Positions 10,444 through 32,987 of a DNA stretch of 50,781 bases are shown here, in pieces (positions within the stretch are counted from its first letter, which is position 1; each line of letters opens with the position of its first letter). The stretch lies in contig MEDY01000213.1 in the NCBI GenBank assembly GCA_001724265.1, positions 1 through 50,781 of the forward strand. The letters run 5' to 3'. The translations under genes and the position numbers were made by a program. Source of the DNA: Rhizaria sp. SCN 62-66. Lineage: Eukaryota. The notes beneath the pieces are model-generated. The model had not been told where the DNA came from. It did no database searches and saw nothing but the letters and a program-made list of their open reading frames with translations.

Positions 10444-13400
10444 ATGCCGGCGTCTCCTGCAGCGGCTGCTGCGTCGCCCTCTGAGGCCCCGCAGGAGTCG
10501 TACCTCGTCGGCGATGGTGTTCACCTTGACCTCAAGGCCATGAGCACGATCAAGCTCGCTGGTTTTGACGACTTACCGTCTGTCATTGAGAAGGTTCAAC
10601 AGTCGTCTTCTCTTCTTGCGTCATCCTTTGATGAAATTTCCCGCGCTGCCGGCGTGCAGCTTACAGCGGCCAACACGCCCGAGCCGCTGCCCGAGCGCGC
10701 ATCATTGAGCGTCGACGCTCTCGTCCAACGCGACGTGAAGTCTTACTTGCACTGGCTGCGCCGCTGCGTACCCGCTTTTGGCACCTTTGTCACTGAGGCA
10801 GACGTGTCGCGTTTGGCGCAATTTGCTGCTGTGTCGACCCTGACGGCCTCCGAGTGGCACCTACGTCGCGGCGAGCGCCACACCTCGGCCGGCTTTGTCG
10901 TCGACGGCGCACTCGCGGAACAGAACGACGTGGTGAACAACCCGCCCCGCGCGTACCGCACGCGCGACGGCCAGCCGCTGAAGGCTGTTGTGCGCGAGGG
11001 CGTACACATCCTGGGCCCCGGTGAGAGCGTTGGCGACCTCTCGCTCTTCCACGGCCGCCGCTCCGACGCCTTCCTCCAGGCCCCTGCTCTGGACAAGGCC
11101 GTGCACACCGGGAACTCGCCCGCCGTGGCGTCGGCGTGCACGGCTACGGTGCTGCTGTTTCCCTACAACTCCTTTGCGGAGATGCAGGCGACCGCGCCCG
11201 CGCTCTACTCCAAGATCGTCAAGGTCTTTGCCCAGATCGGCCTCGACAAACTCTGCGGCAAGAACACCGTCGACGTCCGCGCCGTTGCGGCCTCGCTCGA
11301 GGAGCAGCGCCAGGGCCGACTTCGCGCTAAGACCGCCAACGCCTCCGCGCCCTTGTCCGTGGCCAGCTCGCCGCGCGCGGACTTGGCGGGCGACCGGCCG
11401 GCGTCGCTGATGAAGGAGCCCGATTCGCCCTCTGCCGGCGCAGGGGCGGGTTTCTTTAACATCAAGCCTATCGACGCGGACGACGACGACGACGACGACG
11501 CTGCGGCTGCGGGCGGCACGCCGATGCTGTTTCCTGAGGCGTTCGGCGGCAAGAAGGGCGGCGCCGCCTCGATCTCGCCTGCCGACACCGCCGCGTCCGG
11601 CGCAGGCGCTGGCTCCGCTGCGGCGGCAGGCACGGACGCCAACGGCGACCCGCTGCCGCTGATGCCCGAGTCGTCGTCGCACCTGAACACGCAGCTGTTC
11701 GCCTCGCTGGGTTTGCAGGTCATCCCGTTCAACCCCGACGCGGACCGCGCGCGCCGCCACAAGACCAAGGGCGGCGTCTACACACAGTCCGGCCACGGCT
11801 GGGAAAGCGAGGACCTTGGCTTTGCGTTCGAGTACGCATCGGTGTTCACCGACGCCGAGTGGGAGCACCTGCGCGAGTTCCTCATCCGCCTCCTCGCCGG
11901 CAAGCTGCCGTGCCCCGTGCCTGCGTGCGGCGTGCCCGTCTACTTCCTGGCCGACCCGGCGACGTTCGCGCCGCCGCCGTGGTCCGTTGCGTCGGCCTCG
12001 GAGCGCTCCTCGCAGGCCGCCGAGCGCACGGGGCTGTCCACCGCGCACCGCGCCGTGTTCGGCTTCATTACCCACGCAGCCGGCGCCGGCAGCGGCGGCA
12101 GCAGCGGCGCGGGCGGCGAGGCGGCGCTCGCGCAAGGCGGGCCCGGCGCGCTGCAGCGCACGGCGACGGCACGACAGGTGACGGCCGGCGTCGACCTCTC
12201 GGTTCCGCAGCCGCCGTCAACGCGCTCTGTGGTGCATCTCGCGCGCGCCACGGACCGCTACACCGTGCGTCTGCTCGCGCGCCGCAGCGAGGCCGCCGAG
12301 GCCGCGCTGCACAACGGCTCCGCCGCGATGCTGCAGATGCGTGCGGTGCAGGACCGGCTCGCGGAGCTCTTGGCGCCGTGCGTCGACTTCGCGCGCCGCA
12401 CGCTCGCCAGCGCCACCGCGGCCGATGATGCGGCGGGCGGCGACAGCGGCGCCGAGGGCGGCGCGGGTGACAGCAGGGCCAAGAAGAACAAGGACAACGA
12501 TCTTAGCGACCCCTACTCGGCCGCGAGCGTCAAGAGGGCCCTCGAGCGCAAGCAGCAGCGCCAGGGCCGCGCCTCCGGCCGCGTCGCGCCGCCCTCGGGC
12601 GCCCGCAGCGCGCGCGGCGGCAAGCACGGCCAGGCCGCTAGCCAGGGCCAGGGCCTGGATCAGGGCGCCGCGGCTGCGTCTGCGCAGGATGAGCTTGCGC
12701 TTCTGTCGCAGGCCTTCGCGGGCGACGCTGCGGCCGCCGAGCAGCTGGCCGCCAACTCGCGCCAGACCAACGGCTCCGGCTCTCACTCTGGTGCCGCCAC
12801 CGCGGGCGCGCTGGTGGCCGCTGGCGCCGTTGGCGGCGCCGCCGCGGGCGCCGCGGCAGGCCGCGCGAGCTCGGGCTCCGGCCCCAGCACGCGCACCGCT
12901 CACAGGGACTTCGACCTCGCGTCGGGGCAGCCGCTGGACCGCGTGACGCCCCGCAGCAGCGGCGCGGCCGGGGCCGGGGCCGGCGGCCGCGCGGGCTCCC
13001 CGACGCAGCGCGCGGGGATGGGCGCGAACGGTGCTAACTCTAAGAGCAGCACACAGCTCGTCCCCGCGTCCTCAGGCTCCGGCGCCCTCGTCGGCGCTGG
13101 CAGCGGTGCCGAGGGCGGCGCTGCGGGCGGCAAGGACAGCGGCGCGATCGTCGCTGCGACGCTGCTGGCGCCCGGCGCAGTCGTGTCGGCGCTGACGATG
13201 GCGCACGCGGCGACGCTGCGCAAGCTCAACCAGCAGCGCCAGGCCACGCGCCGGCTGCGTCTGCTCATGGCGCTGCTGTGCGGCCGCGTCCTCATCGAGC
13301 GCATCCGCACGCGCCGCACGCTCGGCGCCGTGCACGCTGCCATGGCCGCACAGACGTGCGCCGCGGCGCAGTCGACGGCCGAGCTTGTTGCCGCGCTCAA

Positions 13401-16400
13401 CGCCACCGCGGTCGAGTCCGAGGCGCTGTCCGCGCAGTCTGACACCGCGGGCTCGGCCTCCCGCGACCCTTCGCCGCGCCGCGGAGCGCCCTTCACGCCT
13501 GCCCGCGCGCCTACGGCCGCCGCGGGGTCCATGTCGCCCTCGGCCTCGCAGGGCGCGCTGGACCGCAAGCCGTCGATGGCGCGCCTTCTCTCGCAGCCGC
13601 AGTCGCAGCAGGCCGACGGCGACGCGCTGGCACAGTCGCAGAGCGTGACCGCGCTCGCTTCCCCGCGCGCCGACGGCGACGACGCCTACCCCGCGTCTGC
13701 CTCTGGCGCTGGCGCTGCTGACGCAAGCGTTGGTGCGGGCGCGGAGGGTGAGGACTCTACCAACGAGCGTCGTCTTGCGGCGGCGTCGCCGTCGTCGCAG
13801 CAGCCACAGTCGGCTGCGCCGGCGGGCCCGCTCGTGCAAGGCTACACGCCCAGGACGGACCTGGTGCTGCTGCAGAGCAATCTGCAGTCCCTTGTTGGCG
13901 CAATCGGGGCCGCCGAGGTTGTGACCTCGAACCCCTCCCAGCGCGCGCCCGGCTTCCGCGGCGCCGGCGCGGGCGTCGGCGTTGGCGGCTTCAGTGGCGG
14001 TGTACGCTCGCGCGGCCGCCTACAGCAGCAGCAGACACAGCGCGGCAGCGGTGGCGCGGGCTCGGCTCGAAGCACCCCGCAGCACCCGTCGCGTAGAATC
14101 ACTCACGCAGGCAATAACAACAATAACACGAACAATGCCCGCGGCTCTGCGACGCCTGGAGGTAACAACGGCGCGAACGTGTACGGCCCGTACTCACAGC
14201 AGCCGCTGAGCTCACCGACAAACGCGAGCCGCGCGTTCACGAACGGCAGCGGCTACGCCGATCCGTCCAACGCGCCCTCGCAGTCTCCTGCGGCGGGCAC
14301 GCGCTCGGTTCAGGCGACGCCGCGCCGCGCCTCGCGCCCGGTGGCGGGCTCAGCGGCCGCGACGCCCGTGGCGCCCGCCCAGTCGGGCACGGCGGCCAAG
14401 ATCCAGGCCATGACTGCCGCGCTGCACGCGCGCAACGGAGACGCGCCCGCAACGCCTGCGCTCGCCTCTGCCCGCGGCAGCTCCTCCTCACGCAACCCCG
14501 CTGTTGGTGCTGGCTCTCTTGCCGGCCCCGTGTCCGCGCGCGGCAGTAGCTCGACATTCGGCGCTAGTGGCGCTGACAATGGCGCTGGCGCCGCCTTTGA
14601 GGAGCAGGAACCCGTGTACGTCGTGCAGTGGGTCGCCGCGTCCGAGGCGCCCGCGATGTCGCGCGCGAGTTTGCGCTCGAGCGACCACGACTTCAACATG
14701 AGCGCCAACTTCGGCGCCGGAGTGTTGGGCGCGCCACTGCACGGCTACGGAGACACGACCCCCGACGGCGACGACGCTGCGATCTCTGGCCCCAGCCGCC
14801 GCGCGACCGGCTTCAACGGCGGCGCGGGCGGCGCTGGCAACGGCGGCGCGCGCAACACGGCGATGGACGGCACGGTGATGAGCGAGGAGTCCGCGGCCGA
14901 GGCTGGCGTCTCGGAGGGGACTGTGCGCGTCATCAACGGCCAGCGTGTCGTCGCCCGCATCGTCGCGCTCCCGCCCAGCGCGCGCGCGCACGACAACGCG
15001 GCGACTGCGGCGGCCGCGGCGGGCGCAGGCAGAGAAGGCGACGACCGTGCGAGCCCACTGCCCGGCAACGACGTTTATGGCGCCAGCGCCACGCCCCGTG
15101 GCAGCACCTCCCGTCTAGGCCAGTCCCAGAGCCAATCCGACCAGCAGGCTCAGGGACAGCAGCATGGCCATCAACATGGTCAGCAGAACTACCCAGTTAC
15201 GCCCGCGCCGCATGCTAGCGTCTCGCGTGGCGGCGCCGCCAGCACCGCTGCGACGCCCTACCAGGGCCACGGCGGCGGCGCTCAGGACTCCGGCAGCATG
15301 GATTTCTGGCTGGCGTCGAATCCGTCGGCCGTCTTCGCGCAGAAGGCGGGCCGCGGTGGCGCGCGCCCCGCGGTGTCTTCGGCCCCTTCGTCGGCTCTGA
15401 CGTCGGCGCAGCTCGTGCAGGTGATGAGCCACCAGACCGAGGCCGCGCGCCGCGTGCACGAGGAGACGGCCTCGCTCGCGCGCGCCTACAGCGCCGCCAC
15501 CGAGGCCCTTGCCGCGCGCATGCGCGACGTGGCGCCGCAGCTCGAGCGCGCGGCTGCGCGTGCGGCGCGCGGAGAGAAGGCGCGCAAGGACGCGGAGAAG
15601 ATGTACCGCGAACTCGAGGCGGCGCGCAAGCGGTTGTCGCGGCTTGAGGGCGAGCGCGGCAAGGAGCGCGAGGAGTACGAAAAGGAGATGCGCGCTGAGC
15701 GCGAACGCTGGGCCGCCATGTCGGCCAACCGCGGCGAGAACGACGCGGCCGAGCTCGAGGACCAGAACGAGCGCCTGCGCGTCGAAAACGCCGCGCTGAC
15801 CAACGAATCGGCGCTGCTCGCGCGCAAGGTACAGGGCCAGCGCAAGTATGTGCAGCAGCAGCAGGACAACCTGGCGCTGCTGGCGTCGCGCGAGCGCGAC
15901 CTAATGGCCGCGATCGACGCGCTGCGTCTGCAGCACTCGGACGTCACGCTCAAGGTCTCCGTGGCGCAGTCCACGGCGGCCGCGGTCGCCATGACGCGCA
16001 CAGGCGCGGGCGCGGGCGGCGTTGGCGGCGTGGGCAACAAGCCCACCTCGCTGCTCAACAACCTCGACGTGCCGGCGATCAAGACGCGCCACGCGCAGGA
16101 GCAGGCGAGAGCGCAGCGCGCACTACAGCTCCAGATCCAGCAGCAGCAGCGCAACGCCGAGGCCGGACCCAACAACGGCGGCCAGAACCCGCAGCTGATG
16201 AGTCCGGAGCGTGAGCAGCCGCCCGCGCTGGGCTACTACCCCGAGGGCGACAGTCGCGCCACGACGCCCGCCTACGGCTCCCGCGGCGGCGCAAACAATG
16301 GCACCAGCAGCGCGTTCCAGAGCCCCAACGGCTACGGCAACGGCGGCAACGGCGGCTACGCGACCCCCGGCACCGGCGGTAGCGGTGGCGACTACCGCGG

Positions 16401-16812
16401 CAACTCCGCTAGCCGCGCGCGCGGCGACCTGGGTGCGCTGATGGTGCCCGAGGGGCGTCCGCTGACGACGGCGGGCGTCACCACGCTGCGGTCGCCCCCC
16501 AAGCGACGCAACCACCGGCGCAACTCGAGCGTGGACGCCACCGCGCTGGCGCCGATGCTGCCGCCGATCACCATCGCGCAGCCTTACACGCACTTCATGC
16601 CGCCCGTCGGCAAGGCCGTCGGACTCGGCTCCGGCGGCGCGGGCAACGGCGGCGGCGGCGGCGGCGGCGGCAGCAGCGGCACGGCCGCGCCGACGCCGCA
16701 GCAGCACCAGCAGGCGATGCAGCACCAGCAGCAGCAACGTCAGGACTTGCCCGCGGGGTCGTACGCCACGGGTGGGCCCTTCATGTATCACCCCACCGCC
16801 GGCCACGCGTGA
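10444..16812 (+). CDS. 2122-aa protein with an N-terminal cyclic-nucleotide-binding (cNMP)-like domain, a long disordered middle and a C-terminal coiled coil
   Basis: Uninterrupted ORF with host-like codon bias. VPAFGTFVTEADVSRLAQF...RRGERHTSAGFVVDGAL...LGPGESVGDLSLFHGRRSDAFLQA...TATVLLFPYNSFAEM fits the cNMP fold. E/R/K-rich heptads at about 15430-15960. Ends TGA. Confidence 0.8.
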   Translation: MPASPAAAAASPSEAPQESYLVGDGVHLDLKAMSTIKLAGFDDLPSVIEKVQQSSSLLASSFDEISRAAGVQLTAANTPEPLPERASLSVDALVQRDVKSYLHWLRRCVPAFGTFVTEADVSRLAQFAAVSTLTASEWHLRRGERHTSAGFVVDGALAEQNDVVNNPPRAYRTRDGQPLKAVVREGVHILGPGESVGDLSLFHGRRSDAFLQAPALDKAVHTGNSPAVASACTATVLLFPYNSFAEMQATAPALYSKIVKVFAQIGLDKLCGKNTVDVRAVAASLEEQRQGRLRAKTANASAPLSVASSPRADLAGDRPASLMKEPDSPSAGAGAGFFNIKPIDADDDDDDDAAAAGGTPMLFPEAFGGKKGGAASISPADTAASGAGAGSAAAAGTDANGDPLPLMPESSSHLNTQLFASLGLQVIPFNPDADRARRHKTKGGVYTQSGHGWESEDLGFAFEYASVFTDAEWEHLREFLIRLLAGKLPCPVPACGVPVYFLADPATFAPPPWSVASASERSSQAAERTGLSTAHRAVFGFITHAAGAGSGGSSGAGGEAALAQGGPGALQRTATARQVTAGVDLSVPQPPSTRSVVHLARATDRYTVRLLARRSEAAEAALHNGSAAMLQMRAVQDRLAELLAPCVDFARRTLASATAADDAAGGDSGAEGGAGDSRAKKNKDNDLSDPYSAASVKRALERKQQRQGRASGRVAPPSGARSARGGKHGQAASQGQGLDQGAAAASAQDELALLSQAFAGDAAAAEQLAANSRQTNGSGSHSGAATAGALVAAGAVGGAAAGAAAGRASSGSGPSTRTAHRDFDLASGQPLDRVTPRSSGAAGAGAGGRAGSPTQRAGMGANGANSKSSTQLVPASSGSGALVGAGSGAEGGAAGGKDSGAIVAATLLAPGAVVSALTMAHAATLRKLNQQRQATRRLRLLMALLCGRVLIERIRTRRTLGAVHAAMAAQTCAAAQSTAELVAALNATAVESEALSAQSDTAGSASRDPSPRRGAPFTPARAPTAAAGSMSPSASQGALDRKPSMARLLSQPQSQQADGDALAQSQSVTALASPRADGDDAYPASASGAGAADASVGAGAEGEDSTNERRLAAASPSSQQPQSAAPAGPLVQGYTPRTDLVLLQSNLQSLVGAIGAAEVVTSNPSQRAPGFRGAGAGVGVGGFSGGVRSRGRLQQQQTQRGSGGAGSARSTPQHPSRRITHAGNNNNNTNNARGSATPGGNNGANVYGPYSQQPLSSPTNASRAFTNGSGYADPSNAPSQSPAAGTRSVQATPRRASRPVAGSAAATPVAPAQSGTAAKIQAMTAALHARNGDAPATPALASARGSSSSRNPAVGAGSLAGPVSARGSSSTFGASGADNGAGAAFEEQEPVYVVQWVAASEAPAMSRASLRSSDHDFNMSANFGAGVLGAPLHGYGDTTPDGDDAAISGPSRRATGFNGGAGGAGNGGARNTAMDGTVMSEESAAEAGVSEGTVRVINGQRVVARIVALPPSARAHDNAATAAAAAGAGREGDDRASPLPGNDVYGASATPRGSTSRLGQSQSQSDQQAQGQQHGHQHGQQNYPVTPAPHASVSRGGAASTAATPYQGHGGGAQDSGSMDFWLASNPSAVFAQKAGRGGARPAVSSAPSSALTSAQLVQVMSHQTEAARRVHEETASLARAYSAATEALAARMRDVAPQLERAAARAARGEKARKDAEKMYRELEAARKRLSRLEGERGKEREEYEKEMRAERERWAAMSANRGENDAAELEDQNERLRVENAALTNESALLARKVQGQRKYVQQQQDNLALLASRERDLMAAIDALRLQHSDVTLKVSVAQSTAAAVAMTRTGAGAGGVGGVGNKPTSLLNNLDVPAIKTRHAQEQARAQRALQLQIQQQQRNAEAGPNNGGQNPQLMSPEREQPPALGYYPEGDSRATTPAYGSRGGANNGTSSAFQSPNGYGNGGNGGYATPGTGGSGGDYRGNSASRARGDLGALMVPEGRPLTTAGVTTLRSPPKRRNHRRNSSVDATALAPMLPPITIAQPYTHFMPPVGKAVGLGSGGAGNGGGGGGGGSSGTAAPTPQQHQQAMQHQQQQRQDLPAGSYATGGPFMYHPTAGHA

Positions 16813-19320: not shown

Positions 19321-20402
19321 GCGTGCTATCGACCAGCCGTATGCACCGGGAGCAGATGCACGCGCGCGTGCGTGCGTGGGCCATATTTATAGGCGCGGTG
19401 AACTGTGACTGAGAAGATTGATGTGTGTCTTGTCCAAGGTGTTGATGTTGTTAGCTGTGTGCGTGCGTTACACGTAATGAGCAACTGCGACACATGAGGA
19501 CCGATATTCACTGAAATTGTCTCTGGTGCCACTGACTCACCCACCACCGACCCACGCGCACACGCCCGCCCACAAGCATGTTCTTCCTACCCAGCAAGTC
19601 ATGTTTTCGTTTTACAAATCTTTTTTCGTTTCTTTTGTATCATCAACAATTTATTTTTTTCAGGACTATACGGAAGTCGTTTTTCTTTTCGGGGTCTTAT
19701 TTTAGTTTCGAGCCGTTGCAAAGACGCGTGCTCGCCGCCGCGCATCAAATCTGGTGACGTATAGAGGCGAGCAACGTAGCAACGATTTTTCTTTGCGACT
19801 ATGCATTGACATAACAGGCAGTCTTGGGCGGTTTGCGCACGATTTCCTTTCATAGTATTTCAGTAATACAATATCCTCAAACACCACTTCCCTTAACACC
19901 CATATTCACCTTACAATCGCCGACGTGTGCCGACTTGCCCACGGTCACTATTTGCGCACTTCCTGGTTCTGAGGAACCGAAGGAGGCTATCGGCCGGCAA
20001 GGAGGCGACGTGGCACCAATTTCAAAGCAGGATATCTCGATGGATGCATGACATAATATTGATTTATTAAGTGCACCAGCAATGTGACGTTGTTTTTTAT
20101 ATCTCAATGAAGTTATTTATCTATCTACGCTTGGGGTACATCACTGTCGAGCGCATCGCTCTCCGGTGCGCTTCAGTCTTCGGTTTCACTTCGTTTGTTC
20201 ATTTTGAAATGGCTTGCATGCTTTGAGGCGACATGGTTCAACCACCGCTCAAACTATTTTGCGTGCTTTACTGTGTGCGGTATTCAATATTGCCGCTGTC
20301 ATTTGTAAAGACTTTTCTTGCTTACTCTATACTTTCATTTCGTCGACCCTTCTTGCGCCACTCCTATGTTCTTAACAGCTCGCTTCGGCCCGCGACAGTT
20401 TC

Positions 20403-23400
20403 ATGCGTCCCGGCCGCAACGGCTCTAATAACTCGGCTACGGGGCCGAGCCCCGCGAGTCCGATGGCACTTTCGTACACGCCTGACAGCACGCTCGCACG
20501 TCACCCCTCGGCATCAGGTTTCTTGCCTGATTTCGGCACCCGTTCTGGTGTCGCCAGTCCCGGCCTCCCCCGCGCAGGCTCCGGCAGTCCCGCGCTGTTC
20601 ACCAAGAGCTTTACCTCTGCTGGCGGTTCCGAAGACGGCGCTACTGCGACGGCCCCAATCACGATCGCGATCAACTCGCCTCGCTCAGGTCTCAGCAACG
20701 AGCTCGGCCGCCTCGGCCTCAACACTCGCTTTGGCGACTCCCCAGTCTCGCCCTACGCCACCGGCTCTTCCTCAAACCTGAACACGCTGAACCTCAAAAT
20801 GGCGCGTTCCGTGACCCACCAGGCCCCCAGCGAGCTTCTGTTTCGCACGCAAAAGGTGCAGCGCTCCTCCGTCGCCGGCACCGGCACTGGCGCCGGTCGC
20901 ACCATCCCTGTCTCCGAGGAGCGGTGCTGGGAGTACTGGCGCAAGCAGCTGCGATCCCCCGCTGTTTTCACGCTGCTGACCGACTTCCCGCGCCCCGTGC
21001 CGGCCCCTGCGCCTGCGACAAGCACCCCGTCCGGTGTGCCGGCCTGGTAGCCCGACGCGGCCGCGTGTGCTGCTGCCCAGACGGTGCGTCTCGAGCTGCC
21101 CTCGCGGGTGGTGACGCAGATGCGCGCCGCCGCGTTCCAGCACCACGCGACGCTCTACGAGGCCTTTTTGGCCGTGTTCAAGGTGCTGCTGTTCCGCTAC
21201 TCGCGCGAGACGGACGTCACTGTGTACACTGACACGGGCATTAACGTCGTGCCTCTGCGCGTCGCCGTCACCGGCGAGCTCTCGTTCAAGCAGTTGCTGC
21301 GCCTGACCAAGATCGCCGTTGAGCAGGGCTTCCACTACGATCTTCTGGGCGCTGCCGCGCTGGCTGTGGATCTACAGACGACTTCTTTCAGTACCGTTGG
21401 CTTCCAGCTGCAGTACGAGGACGAACGCGCCGACCACGACGCTGCACTTTTCATCCGTTCACATGAGCTCGGTCTTGAGCTCGACCTTCATGACGAGGGC
21501 TTTGCGGTTGTTTCGCTGCATTATGCTCCCTCGCTGTTCGTGGCCGAGACGGCGCGGCAACTGCTTGACCACTTCGGCGAGCTGTGCGTGAACCTCGCCG
21601 CGCCCGATTTCGTCAACTCGACCATCGCAGTCGTGCCGCTGACGTCCTCGGAGGAGTCTGCGGCGCTGCTGCGACAGCGCTGGCCCGAGCGCGTGGGCGG
21701 CCCGCTGGTCGACCACTCGTCACAGGCTGGCCACGAGGAGGAGTACGCGTGGACGACTGATGAGCACATGTCGGACATGTTCGAGCGCCAAGCCGCGCGT
21801 TCCCCTGACGCGCCGTGCATCGACGACGAGGGCCGCGTGTACAGCTACCGCGAGGTCAACGAGCGTGCCAACGCGCTGGCGCGGACGCTTCTTGACAACC
21901 CTGCGCTGGGCATTGTGCCGGGCACGGACCAGCTCATCGCCACGCTGCTTCCCCGTTGCGCGGACGTGTACATCTGCCAACTGGCTATCATGAAGGCCGG
22001 CTGCGGTTACATCTGTATCGACTGCACCTACCCGCAGGACCGTGTTGACTACATCCTGTCTGATTCGCGCTCGCGCGTCATGCTTACCGTTGCCTCGCTC
22101 GCGGGCAAGCAGACAGTGTGTCCCGAGCTCCGTCTCGACGACGAGGACGTCAAGGCCAAGTTCGCCGCCGCTCTTTCTGCTTCGACCAGCAAGGGCAAGA
22201 AGCCCTCTGGTAAGAAGGACGCCGACGGCGATGACTCTGGCGATGAGTACTTCAAGCGTCTGCGCGTGCGTTCTGCGCCTGCGTCGAAGCCGCGCGGCAC
22301 TGACCTCGCGTACGTCATCTATACCAGTGGTACGACTGGCAAGCCCAAGGGTGTGATGATTGAGCACCGCTGCGGTGTCAACTTCGTTAAAGGTGAGGCC
22401 GCATGTTTCCGCATCAAGCCCACTGACCGTGTTTTGCAGGGCTTTTCGACCTCGTTTGACGCCTCAGTCGAGGAGATCTGGCTCCCGCTCTACGCGGGTG
22501 CGTGTCTCGTCGTCGGCACGCTCGCGACGATGCAGTCTGGCCCCTCGTTGCCGCAGGTGCTGCACAAGCTGGGCGTTACCGTGCTGTCCACGGTTCCCAC
22601 GCTGCTCACGATGATCTCGCCGCCCGCGCCTGGTGCGCCCGCCGACGACGTCGACAACCTCCCGCTCGTGCACTTGCTTATCCTCGGCGGTGAGGCGTGC
22701 CCGCCCGAGCTCGTTGCCCGCTGGGCGCCCGGTCGTCGCCTGATCAACTCATACGGCCCCACTGAGGCCACCGTCGTGTCGACGTTCGAGCAGTCGTATG
22801 TGGGCAAGCGCGTCACCATCGGTCGCCCGCTGCCTAACTACTACTGCACGGTTCTTGACGCTAACATGCAGCCATGCCCTGTGGGTATGCCTGGTGAGCT
22901 GCTTATTGGTGGCGTGTCGCTTGCGCGTGGCTACATGAACCTTGAGGCGCAGACCAAGGAGAAGTTCATCACCACGCCGTTCCCCGACCTCGTCGAGACC
23001 GTGCCCGTGCTGTACAAGACAGGCGACCTGTGCCGCTACCTGCGCAACGGCGACATCGAGTTCCTCGGTCGCATTGATTCGCAGGTCAAGCTGCGTGGTT
23101 TCCGCGTCGAGCTGAGCGAGATTGAATCCGTCATCACGCAGTTGCCGTACGTGCGCTCCGCCGTCGTCGCTGTCAAGGGTCAGAACCTCATCGCGTTCGT
23201 TGTGCCCAAGGATCCTATGTCAAGTCCCGGTGGCGACGATGACGTCAAGCACGGCTCTGTCTTTGTCGAGGACGCCAATTCGCTGCTTCTGGACGAGTCT
23301 GAGCCAATTGCGCGTTGCTTCGATCACGCCGCGGCTCGCGAGTACATGAAGAAGATGCTTCCGCACTATATGATGCCCGGTCAGACTATCCTCGTCAAGG

Positions 23401-26400
23401 ACATCCCTTCCCTGCCTTCCGGCAAGGCGGACCGTAAGACCCTGATGCAGATTCAGGTCAAGTCCGGCACGGGCGCTGGTGCGGGCCACGGCTCCCTGGC
23501 CGAGACACGCAAGAAGCGCGCTGGCGCGGGCGCGGGTGGCAAGCGCGCGCGTGGCGCTGCGCGTGAGCGCGGACTGGCCACGGCCGAGGCGCTGGAGAGC
23601 ACGCGTTTCTTCCGCCACGCGCCGCCCGAGAAGCAGGCCGCGATCGCCGCAGCCCTGGCGCGTATCGAGGCCGAGTTCGGCGCGAACCCGGTCAAGGCGC
23701 GCTCTGCTGCCGAGGCGGGAGCGCTGGGCGACTCGGATGCGAGCGACGACAGCGGCAGCGACAGTGACGACGACGCCGGCAGCGGGCTGACGAAGCTGGA
23801 GAAGGAGGTTGTGGGTGTGTGGGAGGAGGTGCTCGGCCAGAGCCCCGTAGGCGTGACGGACGACTTTTTCTCTGATCTCGGCGGCCACTCAGTTGTCGCC
23901 GCGCTTGTGGTGTCGGCTATGCGCAAGAAGGGCCTCGTGGTGTCGATGCGCGAGCTGTACGGAAACCCCACGGTCCGCGGCTTCGTCGCCGCGATGCTCG
24001 CCGATCCTGCCAACGCCGCTGCTGCCGCTGCTGCGCTGCCACCCGCCGCGGCAGCTGCAGCTGCGGCTGCTGCGGCTGAGGCTGGTGCCGAGGAAGGCGC
24101 TGACGATGGCAAGCTGGCGGGCTACCGCGGGCCGCTAATGGGGTGGAAGCAGGAATATGCCGTGTTCATCTTTCAGACTCTGGGGCTGCTCGGCGCCGTG
24201 GCATGGCTGGCGATGGTGCGCATCGGTATCTACTTCTTGATCCGCCTTCTGTACGACAAGCACTTGCTCGATATATCGCTCGGCAACGCCGCCGTGCTGT
24301 GTGCTGTGACGCCGCCGGCGATGACTGCCATTACGCTCCTCTGCCTGCTGCTGCTGATTCCGTTCAAGTGGCTGCTGCTGGGCCGCATCAAGCCCGGTCG
24401 CTATCCCATGTACGGCTGGTTCCACATGCGCTGGTGGCTCGTGTCCAAGATCGCTGCCAACTTCCCGTTCCCGTTCTTCCGCAACACGTGGGTGCTGCGC
24501 TGGTTCCTGCGCCTCATGGGTGCCCGTGTCAGCGGCTCCGCGTACCTCGGCTCGTTCCTGCTGTCAGACTATGACCTCATCACGATCCACGATGACGCTG
24601 CCATCAACACACAGGCGCGTCTGTCGCCTCACCGCTTTGAGGACGGCTTCCTCATCCTCGAGCCCATCGTAATTGGCCGCGGCGCAGTTATCGGTCCCCG
24701 TTCCGCGGTGTCCGGTGGTGTCACTGTCGCTCCCTACGCCGAGCTCGACGCGCTCTCGCTGCTGCCACCTGGCGCGCATGTCGAGCCTGGGACTCTGTAC
24801 CGTGGCAGCCCCGCCAAGCCTGCCGGCCCCGCGCCGGCCACGCCTGTGCCTGCGTTCCAGCCAACCGCGACTGCCGGCGTCATCAACAGCGCCTCCGCCG
24901 CCGAGGCCGCCGAGCACGGCGGCTTTATGCCCTTGATCGAGGAGGGCGACGAGAGTGGCGGCCGCGCGGACCTTGCGCCGACTAAACGCACCTGCTGCTC
25001 TGGTTTTATCGTCTCGCTGTCGATGTTTGTGTCCATGTCACTGTACGGATTCTTCACTCTCTACGCGTACCTACCCGCTGCTGTTGCTTTCTACCTGTTC
25101 CTGGGCCCGCCCAAGTGGTCCCTGGGCCAGATCCTGCAGTGGTCCCCTATCGCCGTCGTCGCGTCCGTGCTCATTTACCTCATCGTCATCATCGTGCTGC
25201 GCTGGGTCGTCTGCTGGCAGTTCACTCCCGGTGCGTACACCACGGACTCGTGGGTCTACTTTCGCAAGTGGTATCTCGATATGCTCACCGACGTCGCTGT
25301 CCAGTCGATGCAGACGCTGTACGCGACTGTGTACACGCCGTTATTCCTGCGTGCACTGGGCGTACGCATGGGCAAGCGCGTAGAGTGCTCCACTCTCTTT
25401 GACTTTACGCCGAATTTGACTGTGCTTCAGGACGAGTGCTTCATCGCCGACCACGTCGCGATGGGCTCATCCGTCGTGCGCCGTGGCGCGTTCGAGCTTA
25501 AGGAGACCGTCGTTGGCGCCCGTACCTTCGTCGGCAACAACGCCGTTCTCGTCGCGGGCTCGCGCCTTGCTGGCAACAGCCTCATCGGCGTCAGCTCCGT
25601 CCCACCTGTCGGCGAGATGGCTGAGGGCACGTCGTGGGTCGGCTCCCCGTCGTTCCTGCTGCCTTCGCGCAAGAAGGTCGCCGGCGTTTCCGAGAGTGAA
25701 ACGTACAACCCGCCCGTGTACAAGGTGCTGCACCGCGCGACCTGGGAGTTCTTCAAGGTGCTGTTTCCCTTTTTCTTGGGTGCGACCAACTACGGCATTC
25801 TCGTCTCGCTCACCGTCTGGGCTCTGGACAAGTATGGCGTCATGATGTCGTCGTTCGTTTTCTTCCCCGTCTTTGCGCTCGCCCTCACCGTCGGCTTCGC
25901 AATATTCGTCATCGCGCTCAAGTGGCTGCTCATCGGCAAGTTCAAGACGCGCAACTACCCGCTGTGGTCCGTTGAAGTTTGGCGCGCCGAGTTCATGCAG
26001 GGCATCGAGGAGAACTTTATCGCCCCCATCTTCCTTAGCGCCGCGCAGGGCTCCTGGTGGGCCGTGCTTTGGTTCCGTCTCATGGGCGCCAACATCGGCG
26101 AGCGCGTGTACTTGGACACGATCTACCTCACGGAGCCCGACCTGATCACGATCGACGACGACTCGGTGATTGAGAGCGCCACCACTGTGCAGACACACCT
26201 GTTCGAGGACCGTGTGATGAAGCAGGAGCCGCTGTACATTGGCCGCGGCTGCTCGGTGGGTGCCAACTCCGTCGTGCTCTACTCCTCCAAGGTCGAGGAC
26301 GGCGCTGTGCTTGAACAGGCCTCGCTCGTCATGAAGGGCGAGACGCTGATGAAGGGCCTGCGCTATGAGGGCATTCCCGCCGTCACCGCTGTGCACCGCC

Positions 26401-26471
26401 GCGCGCCCAACAAGGCCGCACAGTCAGCCGCCTATGTCCCGCCTATCGTCGCGGCGTCGGGCCTTAACTAA
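20403..26471 (+). CDS. Membrane-bound single-module NRPS of the epsilon-poly-L-lysine synthetase (Pls) type: remnant C domain, A, T, then three TM/beta-helix terminal repeats; 2022 aa if the TAG at 21048-21050 is sense
   Basis: A-domain cores YVIYTSGTTGKPKG, FDAS, NSYGPTE, GELLIGGVSLARGY, YKTGDL, GRIDSQVKLRGFRVELSEIE and PSGKADRK. T domain DDFFSDLGGHS (Ser at 23889-23891). Three repeats LRLMGARVSG, LRALGVRMGK and FRLMGANIGE are each preceded by hydrophobic TM stretches. Ends TAA. Confidence 0.92.
21048..21050 (+). other. In-frame TAG no. 3 (candidate sense codon) inside the condensation-domain remnant
   Basis: GTG CCG GCC TGG TAG CCC GAC GCG GCC. The upstream motif YWRKQL...LLTDFPRP and the downstream motif ATLYEAFLAVFKVLLFRYSRETDV are consecutive parts of one C domain. 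Confidence 0.85.
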
Positions 26472-28011: not shown

Positions 28012-28248
28012 ATGATCATCAAGGTCAAGGCTCTCGACGGCACCAAGATCGAGCTTACGGTGAACGAGGACGACACCGTGCTCACTGTGAAGCAGCAGCT
28101 CGCTGAGAGCGTCTCGCTCGACGTGGCCCAGCTCCGTCTCATTCACCTTGGCGTGCCCCTCAAGGACGAGACGACCCTCCAGGAGTCCCGCGTCACCTCT
28201 GGCTCTACGCTCCACATGATTGCCCAGCTCCGTGGTGGCTTCTTCTAA
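28012..28248 (+). CDS. Ubiquitin-like modifier, NEDD8/Rub1-like and divergent (76 aa plus an FF tail)
   Basis: MIIKVKALDG...QLRLIHLG...GSTLHMIAQLRGG-FF. Ubiquitin register is exact with G75-G76; L8, I44 and H68 are retained. Ends TAA. Confidence 0.85.
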   Translation: MIIKVKALDGTKIELTVNEDDTVLTVKQQLAESVSLDVAQLRLIHLGVPLKDETTLQESRVTSGSTLHMIAQLRGGFF

Positions 28249-28579: not shown

Positions 28580-31500
28580 TCAATCTTTCTTCGCAGCGTT
28601 CTTCTCACCCTTCTCCCGCCCGGCGCTGCTGCCACTGTTATTGCCTTCAGCGCGCGTCCTAACTCCAGCCTCCTTGTCCGCAGCATCAGCCTGCGTCTGC
28701 GTCTGCATCTGCGACAACGTCTCGGTCTGCGCCAATGTCTGACCCTGGGCGTGCACATGCCCGAGCGCAGCAGCGGCCGCCGCGGCGACCTCGGCCTCAT
28801 CAACAGGCTTCCTGGTCACGTGGGCCCTGGCCAGCGCCTCGGCCTGCGCCTTGGCCTCGGCCAGGACCTCCTCCTCAGCCGCCTGCCGCGCCACGGCCTC
28901 CGCGGCGCGCGCCTCGGCCAGCACCCGCGCCGCGGCGCGCGCCTTGGCGGCGAGCACCTGCGCGCGCGTCATGCCTGCGGCCTCGGCCTCGCGCTGCGCG
29001 TGCGCCTTGGCCTCCGCGCGCGCCTGCGCGAACGCGATCGCGGCCTCCACTGCGGGTTGCGCGCGGGCGAGCGCGGCGGCGGCGTCGGCCTTGGCCTGCT
29101 CGTTAACGCGCGCGGCCTCGTCCGGGTGCTCGTGACCCTCGATGTCATCCGGGTCGCCCACAGCGTTGGCCGTCGTGGACTGGTACTGCCACATCGCCGC
29201 GTAGACGCCGTTGAGCGCCAGCAGCGACTCGTGCGTGCCGCGCTCCGCGATGTGGCCGTGCGACAGCACGATGATGTCGTCGCAGTGCGTGATGGCCGAG
29301 AGCCGATGCGCGATGTACACGGCAGTGCGGCCCTTGGTGAAAGTGCGAATGTTGTTGATGATCTCGTGCTCCGTCTGCATGTCCAGCGCTGACGTCGCCT
29401 CGTCGCAAAATACGATGCGTGGGTCCTTGAGGATCAGGCGCGCAATCGCGATGCGCTGCTTCTCGCCGCCGGAAAGCTTGAGCCCGCGCTCGCCGACGAG
29501 CGTGGCGAAGCCCTCGGGCATGCGCTCGATCGTGGCCGTGAGATTGGCCAGCTCGGCGGCTTGTCGCACCTCGGCTTCAGTCGCCGACTGCCGTCCGTAG
29601 CGGATGTTGTTCATGATGGTGTCGTTGAACAGACACGTGTCCTGCGGGACTACGCCGATGGCGTTCTTGACGCTGCGGATCTTGGCCTGGCGCACGTCGA
29701 CGCCCGAGAGGAAGACGCCGCCGCCGTCGACGTCGAACTCGCGTGCCGCGAGGCGGAAGATGGTGCTCTTGCCGCTGCCGCTGGGGCCCACGATCGCGGC
29801 CTGCGTGCCCGGCGCGATGGTGAAGGACACGTCGTGAAGAATGGGGCGCTCCTTGGAGTAGGCAAATGACACGTTCTTAAACGTCAGAGAGATGCCGTCC
29901 TCGGAGCTGCTGTCCAGACTGTGTAATGATGATAATAAAACAACGTTAAGAACAAGATTCAGAAGATGTGAGTGATCTGACGAAGCAAAAAACTCTCTCA
30001 AAACGACGAAGTTGAAAAGAATATATGAATCAGACAACGTACGTGATGGCGTTTGGAGGCTGCGCAAGAGAGCTCTCAATGCCGCGCAGAGCCATCATAA
30101 CGTGCATGTCCGTGAGGGCCTGTTTGAGCTCGCGATACACGGAGCCGACGAAGTTGAGCGGGATCGAGAGCTGGAACAGTAGAGCGTTAACCATGACCAG
30201 GTCACCGACAGTCTACAGAAAATGAACAGATTAACAAGAAGAGACAACAATTAATTCAAGTGAGTAAAGTAAGTCAAATAAAAAGAAGAGTGAAACAACA
30301 ACAGAAACACACCAGCAACGAACATCGATCCGGAAATTTCTTTTCAACAAGGTAATCAGGCGTACCATGGTTCCCGCAGCAACTCCGTGAGCCGCCAAAA
30401 GCATGACGGCGGTCATACCGGCGCTGAAGATAACGTTCTGTCCCCAGTTGAGTAGCGCAAGCGACTCGTTGGTGGCGACCGAGGCCCTATTCTGCACGGA
30501 GATGATATCATTGTAGCGCTTCGTCTCGTACTCGATGTTAGAGAAGGCCTGCACGGTGGACGAGTTGATGAGCGCGTCGAACGCGCGCGCGCTGGCCTCG
30601 TTGTCCGCCTTGTTCATCTCACGGCGGAACTTGCCGCGCCACTTGGTGATGCCGACGGTGAAGCCGATGTAAGCCGTGAGCGTGGCGGCCGCGATGGCCG
30701 CGTAGGCAACGCCGCAGTTGGCCGTGAGAATGCCCAGCACGAGCGAGATTTCCAGCGCGGTGGGCACGATGTTGAACGCCAGCGAGTTGAGCACGAAGCC
30801 GATGGAGCGCTGGCCGCGGTCAATGGCGCGGGTGAGCGCGCCGGTGTTGCGCTCGAGGTGGAACTTGGCGTCCATGGTGAGCAGGTGGCGGAAGAGGTCC
30901 ACAGCGATGGACTGAATGCCGTCCTGCGTGACCTTGGCGAAGAGCGCTGACCGCAGCTCGTTGGTGAAGGACGCGAGCGCGCGCGCGATACCGTAGCCGA
31001 GAAGGACGGAGACAGGCACGGCAACCATCAGCGACGGCTGCCCCGCGGCGTTGACGGCGGACATGGCCGCCTCGACCGTAGACGCAACCGACTCGACCGT
31101 GGACGCGACAGAGTCGGCCACAGCCGCAGTGGTCTCGGGACACGCCCCCACGGCCGTCGCGCACTGGTCGGCAACCGCGCACGCGGCCTGCTTGGCGGCC
31201 GCCGCGTCGGTCGCGGTGGGCACATGTTGCGCGAGCGCCGAGGCGTCGAGGCTCGGCACGGCGACGTTGTGCTTGGTGGCCAGCTCGACCACGCGCTGGT
31301 GCGCCTCGCGGGCCTCGAGCCGCGCAGAGGCGAGCTGCTGCTGCGCGAGCTCGAGCTTGGCGGCCGCCTCCGTGGCTTGCTCCTGCAGCGCCGACTTGAG
31401 CGAGGCAGTAGCTTTGACCCGCGCCTGCACGCGGCCCAGCTCGTCGACGGCCTGCTTGAAAAGCAGCGGGACCCAAACGTTCATCACCTTGGCCGCCATG

Positions 31501-32315
31501 AGGCATACCATGGCCAGCGCCACCCGCACGCGGTGCCGCGGCTTGTCGGCGGGCCAGATGTAGGCCGAGAGTTGCTCAATGGCGAGCAGCAGGGACGGCG
31601 GCGCGCCCTCGGCCTCGCCCTGCGCCAGCTTGTCGCGGGACGTCTTGGACTCAACTTTGGGCGCCGAAGGCAGGTTCTCGGGGTCCACCGACGGAGGACG
31701 CTTGTTCGACACGGACAAAATCGAGAAAAGCCGGTGCGAAAAGGTCATCATATCGGGGGTCACCCACGCGGGCAGCGCGGGAGTCGGCTTCGCACCTGTA
31801 ATCGCACCCGCACTAGGGGGCGACCGACTGGCAGCGTTGCTGTTGATGGGGGCGGAGGCTGCGGAGGGGCGCGCGCGGAGGTTAGCGGTAGCACCGGAGG
31901 CTGTGGACGCAAAGCCACAGGCAGGAGCCGACGCGGGGCCCACGGTCACGGGCGCGACTGAGGCAGTTGCCGCAGCGGGAGCGGAGGGGGATGCTGAAGA
32001 AGAGACAGAAGCAGTGGCAGAGGCGCGGGCCACGGCAGGCGCAGGACCAAACGCGCCTAATCCGCAGGCAGCGGTCGCGCGGGACGCGAGCGGGCGGGCA
32101 AGCCAAGACGCTGCGCGGCGCAAGGAGATCGTAGGCTTAGCAAGAGCAGACGCAGACGTTGCGGAAGACGGGGCGGCGACAGAAACACTGCTTGTGTTTG
32201 CGGGCTTTGCAAGCGCATTATTGCGACCAAGACCACTCAGGCGCGCAAGAGCGCCGAACGAGCGCGCGGTCGCTTGAAGCGTCGCAGCGCTGCGCGTGGC
32301 GCGAGAGCGGATCAT
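28580..32315 (-). CDS. ATM1: Mitochondrial ABC half-transporter ATM1/ABCB7; exons 32315-30366, 30212-30043 and 29918-28580 (1152 aa)
   Basis: Motifs [76 protein letters not shown], Walker [18 protein letters not shown] and DEATSALD. Two GT-AG introns restore the frame. N-terminus is presequence-like. Ends TGA. Confidence 0.95.
29919..30042 (-). other. Spliceosomal intron 2 of ATM1 (124 nt)
   Basis: GTACGT...ATTACACAG, AT-rich; removal joins PNAIT to [18 protein letters not shown]. Confidence 0.85.
30213..30365 (-). other. Spliceosomal intron 1 of ATM1 (153 nt)
   Basis: GTACGC...TTTTCTGTAG; removal gives the conserved [12 protein letters not shown]. Confidence 0.9.
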
Positions 32316-32987
32316 GATGCAAGGAGGTGCCTGTGCGAGGTCAAGAGCGACTTTGCTTGTCACGCGCGGTAGAAATATCGTTTTAAGAATGTTTAATATG
32401 TAGGAAAGTTAGAAAATCACATGAAAATTTGAGATCTATGTACCCTACTCACTGCGTCAAGGACTATCATGTCCATTCAGCGTCGTTTAGTTAGATGTAG
32501 ATGGAAACTTCCCACACTCAAAGTGCGACAATCTTGCTAGGGTATATCCCATGTTTTCTCGCAGATTCACAGTACTGGATTAAAATATATGAAAGAAAAC
32601 ACCGTTAAAAATTCCACAGACAAACGTGCAAAGTTAACAACGACTGATTAATGCTAGTAAAGTGATGCATTTCAGGGTTCATTTTGAAGCAACGCAAGTC
32701 AGACCCAAAATCTGCCTGCGCAGCGACGTAACCATGGTAAAGCAACTCTGCTTTTTTTTTTTTTTATGTCAGGCATACACATCACGAGATCACCACCAGA
32801 CGAAAACAGCGTAAATAATAAAATATGTATTCGGTTGAACAGCAGAACATGACCATCGACACTCTGCCAGTTCGTTATGTTCATGAGATGTGCACTGTAC
32901 GTACGACAAAACTTCGCGTAACATTTGATACTTTTTGGCCCGCTCGAATGGGGTTAGTTGTTCATCTTTCTCTTACCTGATGATCAT

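Follow-up and report, generated by a model that had tools for sequence, protein, structure and literature searches.

Epsilon-polylysine and other polycationic isopeptides find use in food preservation and as delivery agents. To our knowledge, the enzymes characterized so far are bacterial or, in a few cases, fungal, and our literature searches found no characterized enzyme from a protist. The synthetase Pls combines an adenylation (A) and a thiolation (T) domain without a thioesterase, has alanine at position 2 of its substrate pocket, and carries six membrane helices whose three pairs alternate with three acetyltransferase-like tandem domains; the available text of the papers describing it gives it no condensation domain (PMC8506220, PMC8117764, PMC7179176). 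Epls of the fungus Epichloe festucae is, according to the accessible part of its description, 51% identical to the Pls of S. albulus and keeps the bacterial domain plan, that is, A-T-TM/C1–C3 with a lysine pocket (PMC7179176). A further member of this family, TIGR02353, is PosA, which makes delta-poly-L-ornithine in Acinetobacter baumannii; in the accessible part of the relevant survey it is presented with the pocket DMEHNGTVSK, in which position 2 is methionine (ornithine), and without an N-terminal extension (PMC10522769). Because this survey, in the part available, already lists Pls/PosA-type synthetases in "lower eukaryotes," finding such enzymes in a eukaryote is not new in itself, and the eukaryotic homologs in its supplementary tables may include relatives of the clade described here.

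The gene considered here lies in a window of 50,781 nucleotides, by which we mean the whole stretch of DNA analyzed, on a contig from a metagenome assembly of wastewater or bioreactor samples. Most likely it belongs to the nuclear genome of a GC-rich eukaryote, uncultured and poor in introns, and encodes a single-module membrane nonribosomal peptide synthetase (NRPS) of the Pls/PosA type, with a predicted product. It is a new eukaryotic variant within a known enzyme family. The protein resembles Pls in its A and T domains without a thioesterase, in the alanine at pocket position 2, and in its six helices alternating pairwise with three tandem domains; it resembles Epls in its eukaryotic host, domain plan, and lysine pocket, and PosA in its family and predicted terminal-domain fold. 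It differs from Pls in its length (2022 residues vs. approximately 1300–1400 in the bacterial relatives seen), in an N-terminal extension of approximately 440 residues that contains half a condensation domain, in Ala/Gly-rich inserts in its linkers, and in the eukaryotic nature of its host. Compared with Epls as far as that enzyme is described, its clade has diverged much further and additionally carries the N-terminal part, and unlike PosA it has the pocket DAESIGSVVK.

Table 1. Features of the synthetase gene, with positions in the window.
Feature	Position	Strand	Basis
Whole CDS, one frame from ATG (20403) to TAA (26469–26471)	20403..26471	+	
Low-complexity N-terminal part, approximately 170 residues	20403..20912	+	No Pfam or NCBIfam family
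C-terminal half of NRPS condensation domain, residues 178–422	20934..21668	+	PF00668
In-frame TAG, codon 216	21048..21050	+	Between invariant W215 and P217-D218
Adenylation domain, residues 460–1008	21780..23426	+	Pfam, NCBIfam, motif search
Carrier (thiolation) domain, residues 1135–1197	23805..23993	+	PF00550, 43 bits
Unit 1: helices 1 and 2, beta-helix C1, RLMG at residue 1370	24144..24842	+	Hydropathy, model, homology
Unit 2: helices 3 and 4, beta-helix C2, RALG at residue 1650	24993..25682	+	Hydropathy, model, homology
Unit 3: helices 5 and 6, beta-helix C3, RLMG at residue 1892, QTHLFEDR	25716..26387	+	Hydropathy, model, homology

Family Membership and Domain Plan

The coding sequence comprises 2022 codons, including one in-frame TAG, and ends in TAA; apart from the TAG there are zero defects along its length. 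Under table 11 it is split into two open reading frames (ORFs; 20403–21050 and 21084–26471). It aligns collinearly with the related proteins P0002–P0004 over the whole stretch between the N-terminal block and the C-terminus, and judging from the collinearity of its frame with four relatives no introns are required. A previous reading of this DNA, made from the sequence only, had reported a coding sequence of about 6 kb without introns, which is accurate as to the introns, but the frame is not unbroken.

The protein scores 467.2 bits against TIGR02353 (Pls/PosA, NCBIfam; cut-off 423.1) and 395 bits against TIGR01733 (cut-off 317.4), and its Pfam matches are AMP-binding (269 bits), AMP-binding_C, PP-binding (43 bits), and Hexapep. 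Since TIGR02353 is matched above its curated cut-off and six membrane helices and three beta-helix domains are present, the assignment to the Pls/PosA family holds, in agreement with the identity proposed by the sequence-only reading. Its claims of an A and a T domain and of a missing thioesterase or reductase were equally sound, as neither of the latter families is found in the protein in Pfam and NCBIfam searches. The core motifs of the A domain are intact (YTSGTTG, FDAS, NSYGPTE, YKTGD, GRIDSQVKLRGFRVE, and PSLPSGKADR), and the phosphopantetheine serine of the T domain, Ser1163 (nt 23889–23891), lies in a GGHS motif that begins at residue 1160.

The C-terminal part consists of three units, each with two long helices and a left-handed beta-helix, in an AlphaFold model with a pLDDT of 86.9 and a pTM of 0.89. 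The helices span approximately residues 1248–1285 and 1293–1330 in unit 1 (model helices 24–61 and 69–101), 1531–1568 and 1574–1611 in unit 2 (307–343 and 350–380), and 1772–1811 and 1813–1848 in unit 3 (548–587 and 589–619), where model numbering plus 1224 gives the numbering of the protein; the fifth helix is weak in hydropathy and clear in the model. The units are mutually homologous (E values of 1e-12, 3e-13, and 6e-30). Hydropathy, internal homology, and the model thus bear out the three TM-plus-beta-helix repeats that had been read from the sequence. The R-x-[LM]-G motifs likewise ascribed to these repeats occur once per unit in a common register, and their number by itself is not significant, at least three being reached in 11% of shuffles. 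The best Foldseek matches of the model are hexapeptide acetyltransferases (35 matches with E ≤ 0.001), whereas a PDB sequence search with the terminal domain returned weak hexapeptide matches only and no solved Pls-type terminal domain. The fold matches the model of the PosA terminal domain as described in the available part of PMC10522769, which has six bent helices, three five-turn left-handed beta-helices, and three-fold pseudo-symmetry. All 63 columns that are invariant across an alignment of 69 rows are retained in the protein, and the family-wide QTHLFEDR block (Q706–R713 in C-terminal numbering) is invariant in 69/69 rows.

Relatives and Phylogeny

Four relatives are 51–72% identical to the protein, and in them the regions around the TAG and of the half condensation domain are conserved. 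With the three that are full-length it forms a clade that has an SH-aLRT support of 100% and a stem length of 1.03 changes per site, and this clade lies outside the sampled bacterial groups. The tree was built without fungal or S. albulus sequences. Both trees left out the P rows shorter than 1200 residues, approximately three quarters of P0041–P0120, and the short sequences L017, L027, and L031; the second tree, to which L042 was added, additionally omitted L023, L039, L040, and L041. L042, a probable Streptomyces Pls (a DAES-type paralog in Streptomyces diastatochromogenes), is on a branch of 1.81 in this second tree and its position is unsure; the protein shares 39.6% identity with it over the A domain and 29.8% over the C-terminal domain. 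L016 was considered as a Pls and rejected, as it grouped with Dap/Dab-type sequences.

Outside the clade, the nearest sequences are uncharacterized Pls/PosA proteins of Planctomycetota, Acidobacteriota, Verrucomicrobiota, and other groups (P0005–P0120). These are 31–42% identical over the terminal domain (32–37% for the 65 in the 69-row alignment), and the A domain is 45.6–45.7% identical to those of P0016 and P0088. They are approximately 1300–1400 residues long, lack PF00668, and mostly have the pocket DAESIGTVIK.

The extension is common to the four relatives and, together with the long, fully supported stem, fits the "little-studied eukaryotic branch" that the sequence-only reading had suggested. 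The origin of the clade was probably independent of that of the fungal Epls.

The N-terminal Extension

Within the low-complexity part of the extension there is a conserved block at residues 132–154 (LKMARSV...FRTQK), in which K132, R135, Q150, K151, and R154 are invariant in 4/4 aligned sequences. The PF00668 match that follows (36.3 bits) covers profile positions 197–455 of 456 and spans the TAG, and this region aligns with ordinary C-A-T modules. Neither HHxxxDG nor HHxxxD[GA] was found in a motif search of the entire protein. The half condensation domain, having lost its catalytic histidines, is probably a structural relic. PF00668 is absent from all 116 nonclade rows among the listed homologs and from every Pls-type row of the second search. 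To judge by these comparisons, the clade is set apart from all described members by an extension in which a condensation domain survives only as its C-terminal half; the protein appears to have no catalytic C domain, yet its plan is not identical to the described Pls/PosA plan. The clade lets the role of the extra half domain be tested. Neither the in-frame TAG nor the half condensation domain figured in the sequence-only reading.

Substrate Pocket and Predicted Product

The specificity code of the protein is of the lysine type. Among the protein and its 119 best homologs, the code begins with DAES in 113/120 rows and with DFE in 6/120, and the commonest code, DAESIGTVIK, occurs in 94 of the 120; the pocket studied here has S for T at position 7 and V for I at position 9. 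Our mapping reproduced the published PosA code exactly in two loci and the published DSECYGGVTK in one (codes from the available part of PMC10522769). Position 2 is alanine in lysine enzymes, methionine in PosA, and phenylalanine in Dap/Dab enzymes, according to the same part of that survey. Based on the code, the pocket predicts L-lysine as the substrate. Pocket codes predict the substrate, not the linkage.

By analogy with the family, from which the mechanistic steps are taken, the A domain would activate a basic amino acid, presumably L-lysine, which would be loaded as a thioester onto the phosphopantetheine arm of the carrier domain. The six helices and the three packed left-handed beta-helix domains would then repeatedly join the loaded residue to the side-chain amine of a free acceptor, and the result would be a secreted polycationic isopeptide, most likely epsilon-poly-L-lysine. 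We infer this product and its linkage, as well as a chain length and an antimicrobial, prey-killing, or surface role, from the family. There is a hint here that predatory or bacterivorous protists of activated sludge make their own polycation, and a divergent protist clade with a lysine pocket offers a new scaffold for variation in chain length and linkage.

It is rather unlikely that the enzyme uses another substrate (ornithine, Dab, arginine, or beta-lysine) or forms another linkage and is therefore not an epsilon-poly-L-lysine synthetase. According to the accessible part of PMC10522769, at least six polymers are produced within the family, and similar pockets can differ in substrate. Ornithine, Dab, Dap, and beta-lysine polymers are all products of family members. 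The clade also stands apart from the sampled bacterial groups, so that the transfer of function is indirect, and the pocket departs from the commonest code at the two positions named above. However, it combines alanine at position 2 with glutamate at position 3, as in lysine-activating members, whereas the methionine (ornithine), phenylalanine (Dap/Dab), glycine (beta-lysine), and serine (arginine-type) variants are all distinct (PMC10522769). Furthermore, the code of L042, DAESIGTVVK, is identical at 9/10 positions, and the available text of the Epichloe paper equates the pocket of Pls with that for lysine in bacitracin synthetase 2 (BacB-M1; PMC7179176).

The In-Frame TAG and the Genetic Code

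The surroundings of codon 216 are conserved in 5/5 members of the clade, and the residues aligned to the TAG in the four relatives are E, A, E, and A. The TAG is identical in the metagenome contig L003 and in contigs of runs X2 and X3, whose figures are identical and which may be one data set (X2 is from the study of the likely source); the contigs of X4 and X5, from a separate study, leave 20903–21187 uncovered. Three other long sense-frame ORFs of the window also contain exactly one in-frame TAG each, no sense-frame ORF of the window contains an in-frame TAA or TGA, and TAG terminates 0 of 11 genes in the window. Given the single TAG in three other long genes and its absence from gene ends, TAG is probably a sense codon here. 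The host most likely translates it, in which case the 2022-residue protein would be made whole. An intron spanning the TAG was rejected, since the sequence there has a high GC content and can be aligned with the relatives residue by residue, unlike the AT-rich GT..AG gaps of the neighboring ABC gene. A TAG in the WD40 ORF of L001 was not counted, as the same frame has a TGA between its NACHT and WD40 parts and is ambiguous.

Alternatively, the TAG could be a true stop, and the gene a young pseudogene or the source of a 1783-residue protein only, starting from the methionine at 21120; we consider this improbable, although it has several points in its favor. The frame is broken under table 11, and the public gene call (P0001) is the 1783-residue form. 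The A, T, and terminal domains all lie downstream of the TAG, so that a shortened enzyme could work, as bacterial members do without the extension, and 0 tRNAs, and hence no tRNA with anticodon CUA, were found in the window or in L001–L003. The 1783-residue form would have neither the N-terminal block nor the beginning of the half condensation domain. On the other hand, the TAG sits between invariant residues of a block conserved throughout the clade and inside the PF00668 match, whose score increases from 31.3 to 36.3 bits once the TAG is read through, and it is the sole defect of the frame. The TAGs of the three other ORFs, which have no in-frame TAA or TGA, and the unused TAG at gene ends also argue against a stop, as does the GC content of the 150 nt that follow, which is 0.69–0.75 past three of the four in-frame TAGs and 0.33–0.63 past true stops.

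We put at roughly even chances the fuller proposal that the host is an undescribed protist lineage from wastewater that in its nuclear code reads TAG as an amino acid and keeps TAA and TGA as stops, and that the gene is an old, fully domesticated synthetase that was remodeled by fusion with a condensation relic and depends on the altered code for its complete translation. On this proposal, the homopoly(amino acid) synthetases would have in this clade their first subfamily specific to eukaryotes. This lead on the genetic code is the more novel part of our findings. If true, a considerable fraction of this organism's genes, the synthetase gene among them, are cut short or split by standard gene calling, and a GC-rich nonciliate lineage joins the few known UAG-only code changes as an independent case.

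Host and Genomic Neighborhood

The setting of the gene is eukaryotic. Its neighbors encode RRS1, an RMD1-3 protein, eIF2B-epsilon, Slu7, thioredoxin, and a ubiquitin-like protein; the placement among housekeeping genes given by the sequence-only reading was correct, and so was its remark on codon style and Ala-rich insertions, as the GC3 of the gene (0.81) is within the range of the neighboring named genes (0.77–0.92) and the inserts match those of the host. The adjoining downstream ABC gene, which encodes a half-transporter, has intron-like gaps that are AT-rich and bounded by GT..AG. The gene also occurs in contigs from four further runs belonging to three studies, one run being a poly(A) RNA library; the pieces of the gene in this poly(A) metatranscriptome are assembled contigs for which DNA carry-over is possible. 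The housekeeping neighbors, the intron-like gaps, the poly(A) pieces, and the common codon style together support a eukaryotic host. The best matches of the Slu7 neighbor are metagenome proteins that are 36–42% identical.

That misassembly or contamination placed bacterial DNA in a eukaryotic contig might be suspected from a metagenome sample, from the lack of introns, and from the fact that every homolog found outside the clade is bacterial, but this is exceedingly improbable given that X4 record 17 extends 1386 nt upstream of 20200, X4 record 24 extends 281 nt past 26700, L003 begins 334 nt upstream of the ATG, the public record has the protein on three contigs of up to 85 kb, the gene resembles the host in codon style and Ala-rich inserts, the best bacterial identity is 37–42%, and eukaryote-type genes also flank the L001 ortholog, which adjoins a WD40/Utp12 gene.

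The ABC half-transporter was considered as a linked exporter and rejected, as it is not kept beside the L001 ortholog, the one locus examined. An Rfam scan of the window gave no match. In line with the sequence-only reading, no PPTase family was found in the scanned ORFs of the window, in which small ORFs were covered in part. Among the 120 homolog rows, seven are fused to a PPTase domain (PF01648).

Family Membership and Architecture

This eukaryotic gene encodes a genuine Pls/PosA-family synthetase. The HMM search that the sequence-only reading had proposed places it above the curated NCBIfam cut-off for TIGR02353, "Pls/PosA family non-ribosomal peptide synthetase" (467.2 against 423.1 bits), and TIGR01733 matches the ORF at 395 bits (cut-off 317.4). 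In Pfam, the 1795-residue ORF matches AMP-binding (269 bits), AMP-binding_C, PP-binding, Hexapep, and Condensation (31.3 bits, profile 230–455 of 456), and neither the Pfam nor the NCBIfam scans of the protein showed a thioesterase or reductase family. Because these domains are present, TIGR02353 exceeds its cut-off, and neither release family appears, the A-T-terminal-domain order proposed by that reading, lacking thioesterase and reductase, is confirmed; it did not mention an N-terminal extension of approximately 440 residues. Its uninterrupted coding sequence does not hold literally, as under table 11 a single TAG splits one frame into ORFs 20403–21050 and 21084–26471. Read through, the frame comprises 2022 codons and ends in TAA, and the synthetase is apparently intact.

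The terminal domain consists of three mutually homologous units (BLASTP E values of 1e-12, 3e-13, and 6e-30), each carrying, in the same register, one of the R-x-[LM]-G motifs noted in the sequence-only reading (residues 1370, 1650, and 1892); three such motifs are not significant by count alone, because 11% of shuffles reach three. Hydropathy places hydrophobic stretches at residues 1252–1284, 1296–1330, 1535–1568, 1576–1611, and 1811–1848, the fifth membrane helix being weaker. These stretches and an AlphaFold2 model computed for the C-terminal 798 residues from a 69-row alignment (mean pLDDT 86.9, pTM 0.89) bear out the anticipated transmembrane repeats: in the model, each of the three units pairs two long helices with the beta-helix strands that come after them. 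The modelled fold is the same as the one that Patel and Gulick modelled for PosA, with six bent helices and three five-turn left-handed beta-helices with approximate three-fold symmetry (PMC10522769). Foldseek returned 35 PDB matches at E ≤ 0.001, hexapeptide-repeat acetyltransferases and gamma-carbonic anhydrases, with no full-length structural match. The window protein retains all 63 invariant columns of the 69-row alignment, the third unit's QTHLFEDR block among them.

Substrate Pocket

Anchored on the core motifs of the A domain, the ten Stachelhaus positions fall at D686, A687, E690, S729, I760, G762, S783, V791, V792, and K1008. The resulting code, DAESIGSVVK, is shared by all four clade proteins that were aligned (the window protein plus relatives P0002, P0003, and P0004). 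In the 120 rows made up of the window protein and its best 119 homologues, DAESIGTVIK occurs 94 times, DAESIGTVVK 8 times, DAESIGSVVK 5 times, and other DAES variants 5 times; six codes begin with DFE and two are incomplete. The same columns read DMEHNGTVSK at bacterial loci L011 and L021, exactly the published PosA code, and DSECYGGVTK at L023, exactly another published code (PMC10522769), which validates the column mapping. That paper's account of code position 2 has it set side-chain length, with Ala in lysine enzymes, Met in PosA, and Phe in Dap/Dab enzymes, and the Epichloe paper matches the Pls pocket to the lysine pocket of bacitracin synthetase 2 (PMC7179176). Given the lysine-type code, this rule, and this match, L-lysine is the predicted substrate; linkage and chain length cannot be predicted from the pocket.

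Origin of the Clade

The window protein, with its lysine-type pocket, falls in a clade that is small and divergent and carries an N-terminal half condensation domain of its own. Its relatives P0002, P0003, P0004 (encoded by sequences L001 and L002), and the fragment P0244 are 51–72% identical, and all share the N-terminal extension. With the TAG written as X, PF00668 (Condensation) matches residues 178–422 across the TAG (profile 197–455 of 456, 36.3 bits). A motif scan of the window protein found no HHxxxDG, so the match is a non-catalytic C-terminal half of a condensation domain. When the half domain and A domain were searched together, ordinary C-A-T modules aligned over the whole length (27–34% identity, 93–99% coverage) and Pls-type proteins, none of which carried PF00668, over the A domain only (36–48% identity, 45–71% coverage). 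PF00668 occurs in 4 of the 120 best-homologue rows, all from the clade. Reviews, where they treat Pls, describe it without a condensation domain (PMC8506220, PMC8117764), whereas the window clade has half of one at the N-terminus.

In a terminal-domain tree (90 rows, 701 columns, IQ-TREE LG+G4, short search), the four full-length clade proteins group together (SH-aLRT 100), and their stem measures 1.03 changes per site; they fall outside a group that holds the remaining 80 non-basal rows (support 89) and are nested in no sampled bacterial clade. In Streptomyces diastatochromogenes, a DAES-type paralogue (L042) with the code DAESIGTVVK, probably the Pls of that species, shares 39.6% identity with the window protein over the A domain and 29.8% over the terminal domain, compared with 45.6–45.7% and 34.3–35.2% for the nearest unnamed bacterial rows; its branch is 1.81 long and its placement unsure. 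As fungal Epls is reported to be 51% identical to S. albulus Pls (PMC7179176) and the window clade is divergent, a separate origin of the window clade is likely. Homologues of homopolymer synthetases in "lower eukaryotes" are already noted in a survey (PMC10522769), and our literature searches turned up no characterised protist enzyme of this kind.

Two observations concern the bacterial relatives. A PPTase domain (PF01648) is fused to the synthetase in 7 of the 120 best relatives (P0010, P0061, P0070, P0083, P0104, P0105, and P0108), which, from their domain content, appear to be a self-priming form of the enzyme. The S. diastatochromogenes genome holds five TIGR02353 matches above cut-off; two of them, L039 and L040, have a longest open frame of some 880 residues and no aligning A domain, and could be free-standing polymerisation proteins that belong to split systems.

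In-Frame TAG Codons

The probable TAG sense codon, in the synthetase and three other genes, is the most novel element and calls for genome-scale confirmation. In the synthetase it is flanked by invariant W215 and P217-D218, and four relatives carry E, A, E, and A there. It recurs in L003, an identical 1579-nt contig from another metagenome, and in contigs of runs X2 and X3; contigs of the independent-study runs X4 and X5 do not cover the position.

Coordinates of in-frame TAG codons and other window features
Feature	Position	Strand	Remark
In-frame TAG, long sense-frame ORF	4343–4345	+	only TAG in ORF
In-frame TAG, long sense-frame ORF	8021–8023	-	only TAG in ORF
In-frame TAG, synthetase	21048–21050	+	only TAG in frame
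In-frame TAG, long sense-frame ORF	45217–45219	-	only TAG in ORF
Very long Ala-rich ORF	10444–16812	+	2122 residues
Very long Ala-rich ORF	41794–48231	-	2145 residues
Ubiquitin-like domain	28015–28245	+	
ABC transporter gene	28580–32363	-	AT-rich stretches ~29990–30060, 30190–30300; ends GTACGT...TAG-like
Thioredoxin domain	38868–39134	+	

All four ORFs show coding-type composition both before and after the TAG. Codon-position GC is unchanged on either side of the TAGs in the three other ORFs, and GC in the 150 nt 3' of the TAGs is 0.69–0.75 in three of four, against 0.33–0.63 after true stops. Eleven gene ends use TGA (8) or TAA (3) and never TAG. Among window ORFs, frames merged by a single TGA occur only as antisense shadows, and no TAA merges were found. 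Decoding of TAG as an amino acid, whether through reassignment or efficient read-through, is the simplest account, and we consider it probable; because there are four sites and no tRNA gene was found in the window or L001–L003, the sense codon is treated as a lead only. UAG-only reassignment with UAA still a stop is described for a sainouroid rhizarian (Leu), Iotanema (Gln), and phyllopharyngean ciliates (Leu, Gln) (PMC5304391, PMC11687900). For the fuller reading, an undescribed wastewater protist with UAG-only reassignment, TAA and TGA stops, and a domesticated synthetase fused to a condensation relic, we put the chances at about even.

On the relative's contig L001 (22343–25225, plus strand), a WD40-repeat ORF lies in the same frame as a NACHT ORF, with an in-frame TGA (23729) between them and an in-frame TAG at 24539 in the WD40 part; the arrangement may reflect a pseudogene, two separate genes, or read-through.

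Host and Genomic Context

The window is a metagenome contig. Its sequence recurs in runs labelled bioreactor, wastewater, and activated sludge (12 rows from eight studies), among them a poly(A) metatranscriptome that contains 28% of the sampled words. X2 and X3 contigs show zero differences over 20200–21647, and X4 and X5 contigs match most listed pieces at 99% or more. A chimeric contig is very unlikely, since the X4 and X5 contigs run into both flanks and the GC3 of the synthetase (0.81) lies within its neighbours' range, in keeping with the shared codon style noted from sequence. The housekeeping setting was likewise correctly recognised: RRS1, an RMD1-3 protein, an ABCB-type half-transporter, eIF2B-epsilon, Slu7, thioredoxin, and a ubiquitin-like protein surround the gene. 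The scanned window ORFs yielded no PPTase family, as the sequence-only reading had remarked, and a protein homology search found no close named relative of Slu7. The Ala/Gly-rich linker inserts of the window protein are missing from P0003 and P0004.

Most long window genes have no introns. In the half-transporter gene, the membrane and ATPase parts lie in different frames with AT-rich stretches between them; these GT..AG gaps are, from their sequence, probably spliceosomal introns, which suggests that the organism has introns and that its genome is intron-poor, not intron-free. The two very long Ala-rich ORFs have coding-type GC3 and match no Pfam family. The thioredoxin and ubiquitin-like domains both follow, in frame, sequence that does not look coding; each is probably a small gene that either starts later or has an intron upstream.
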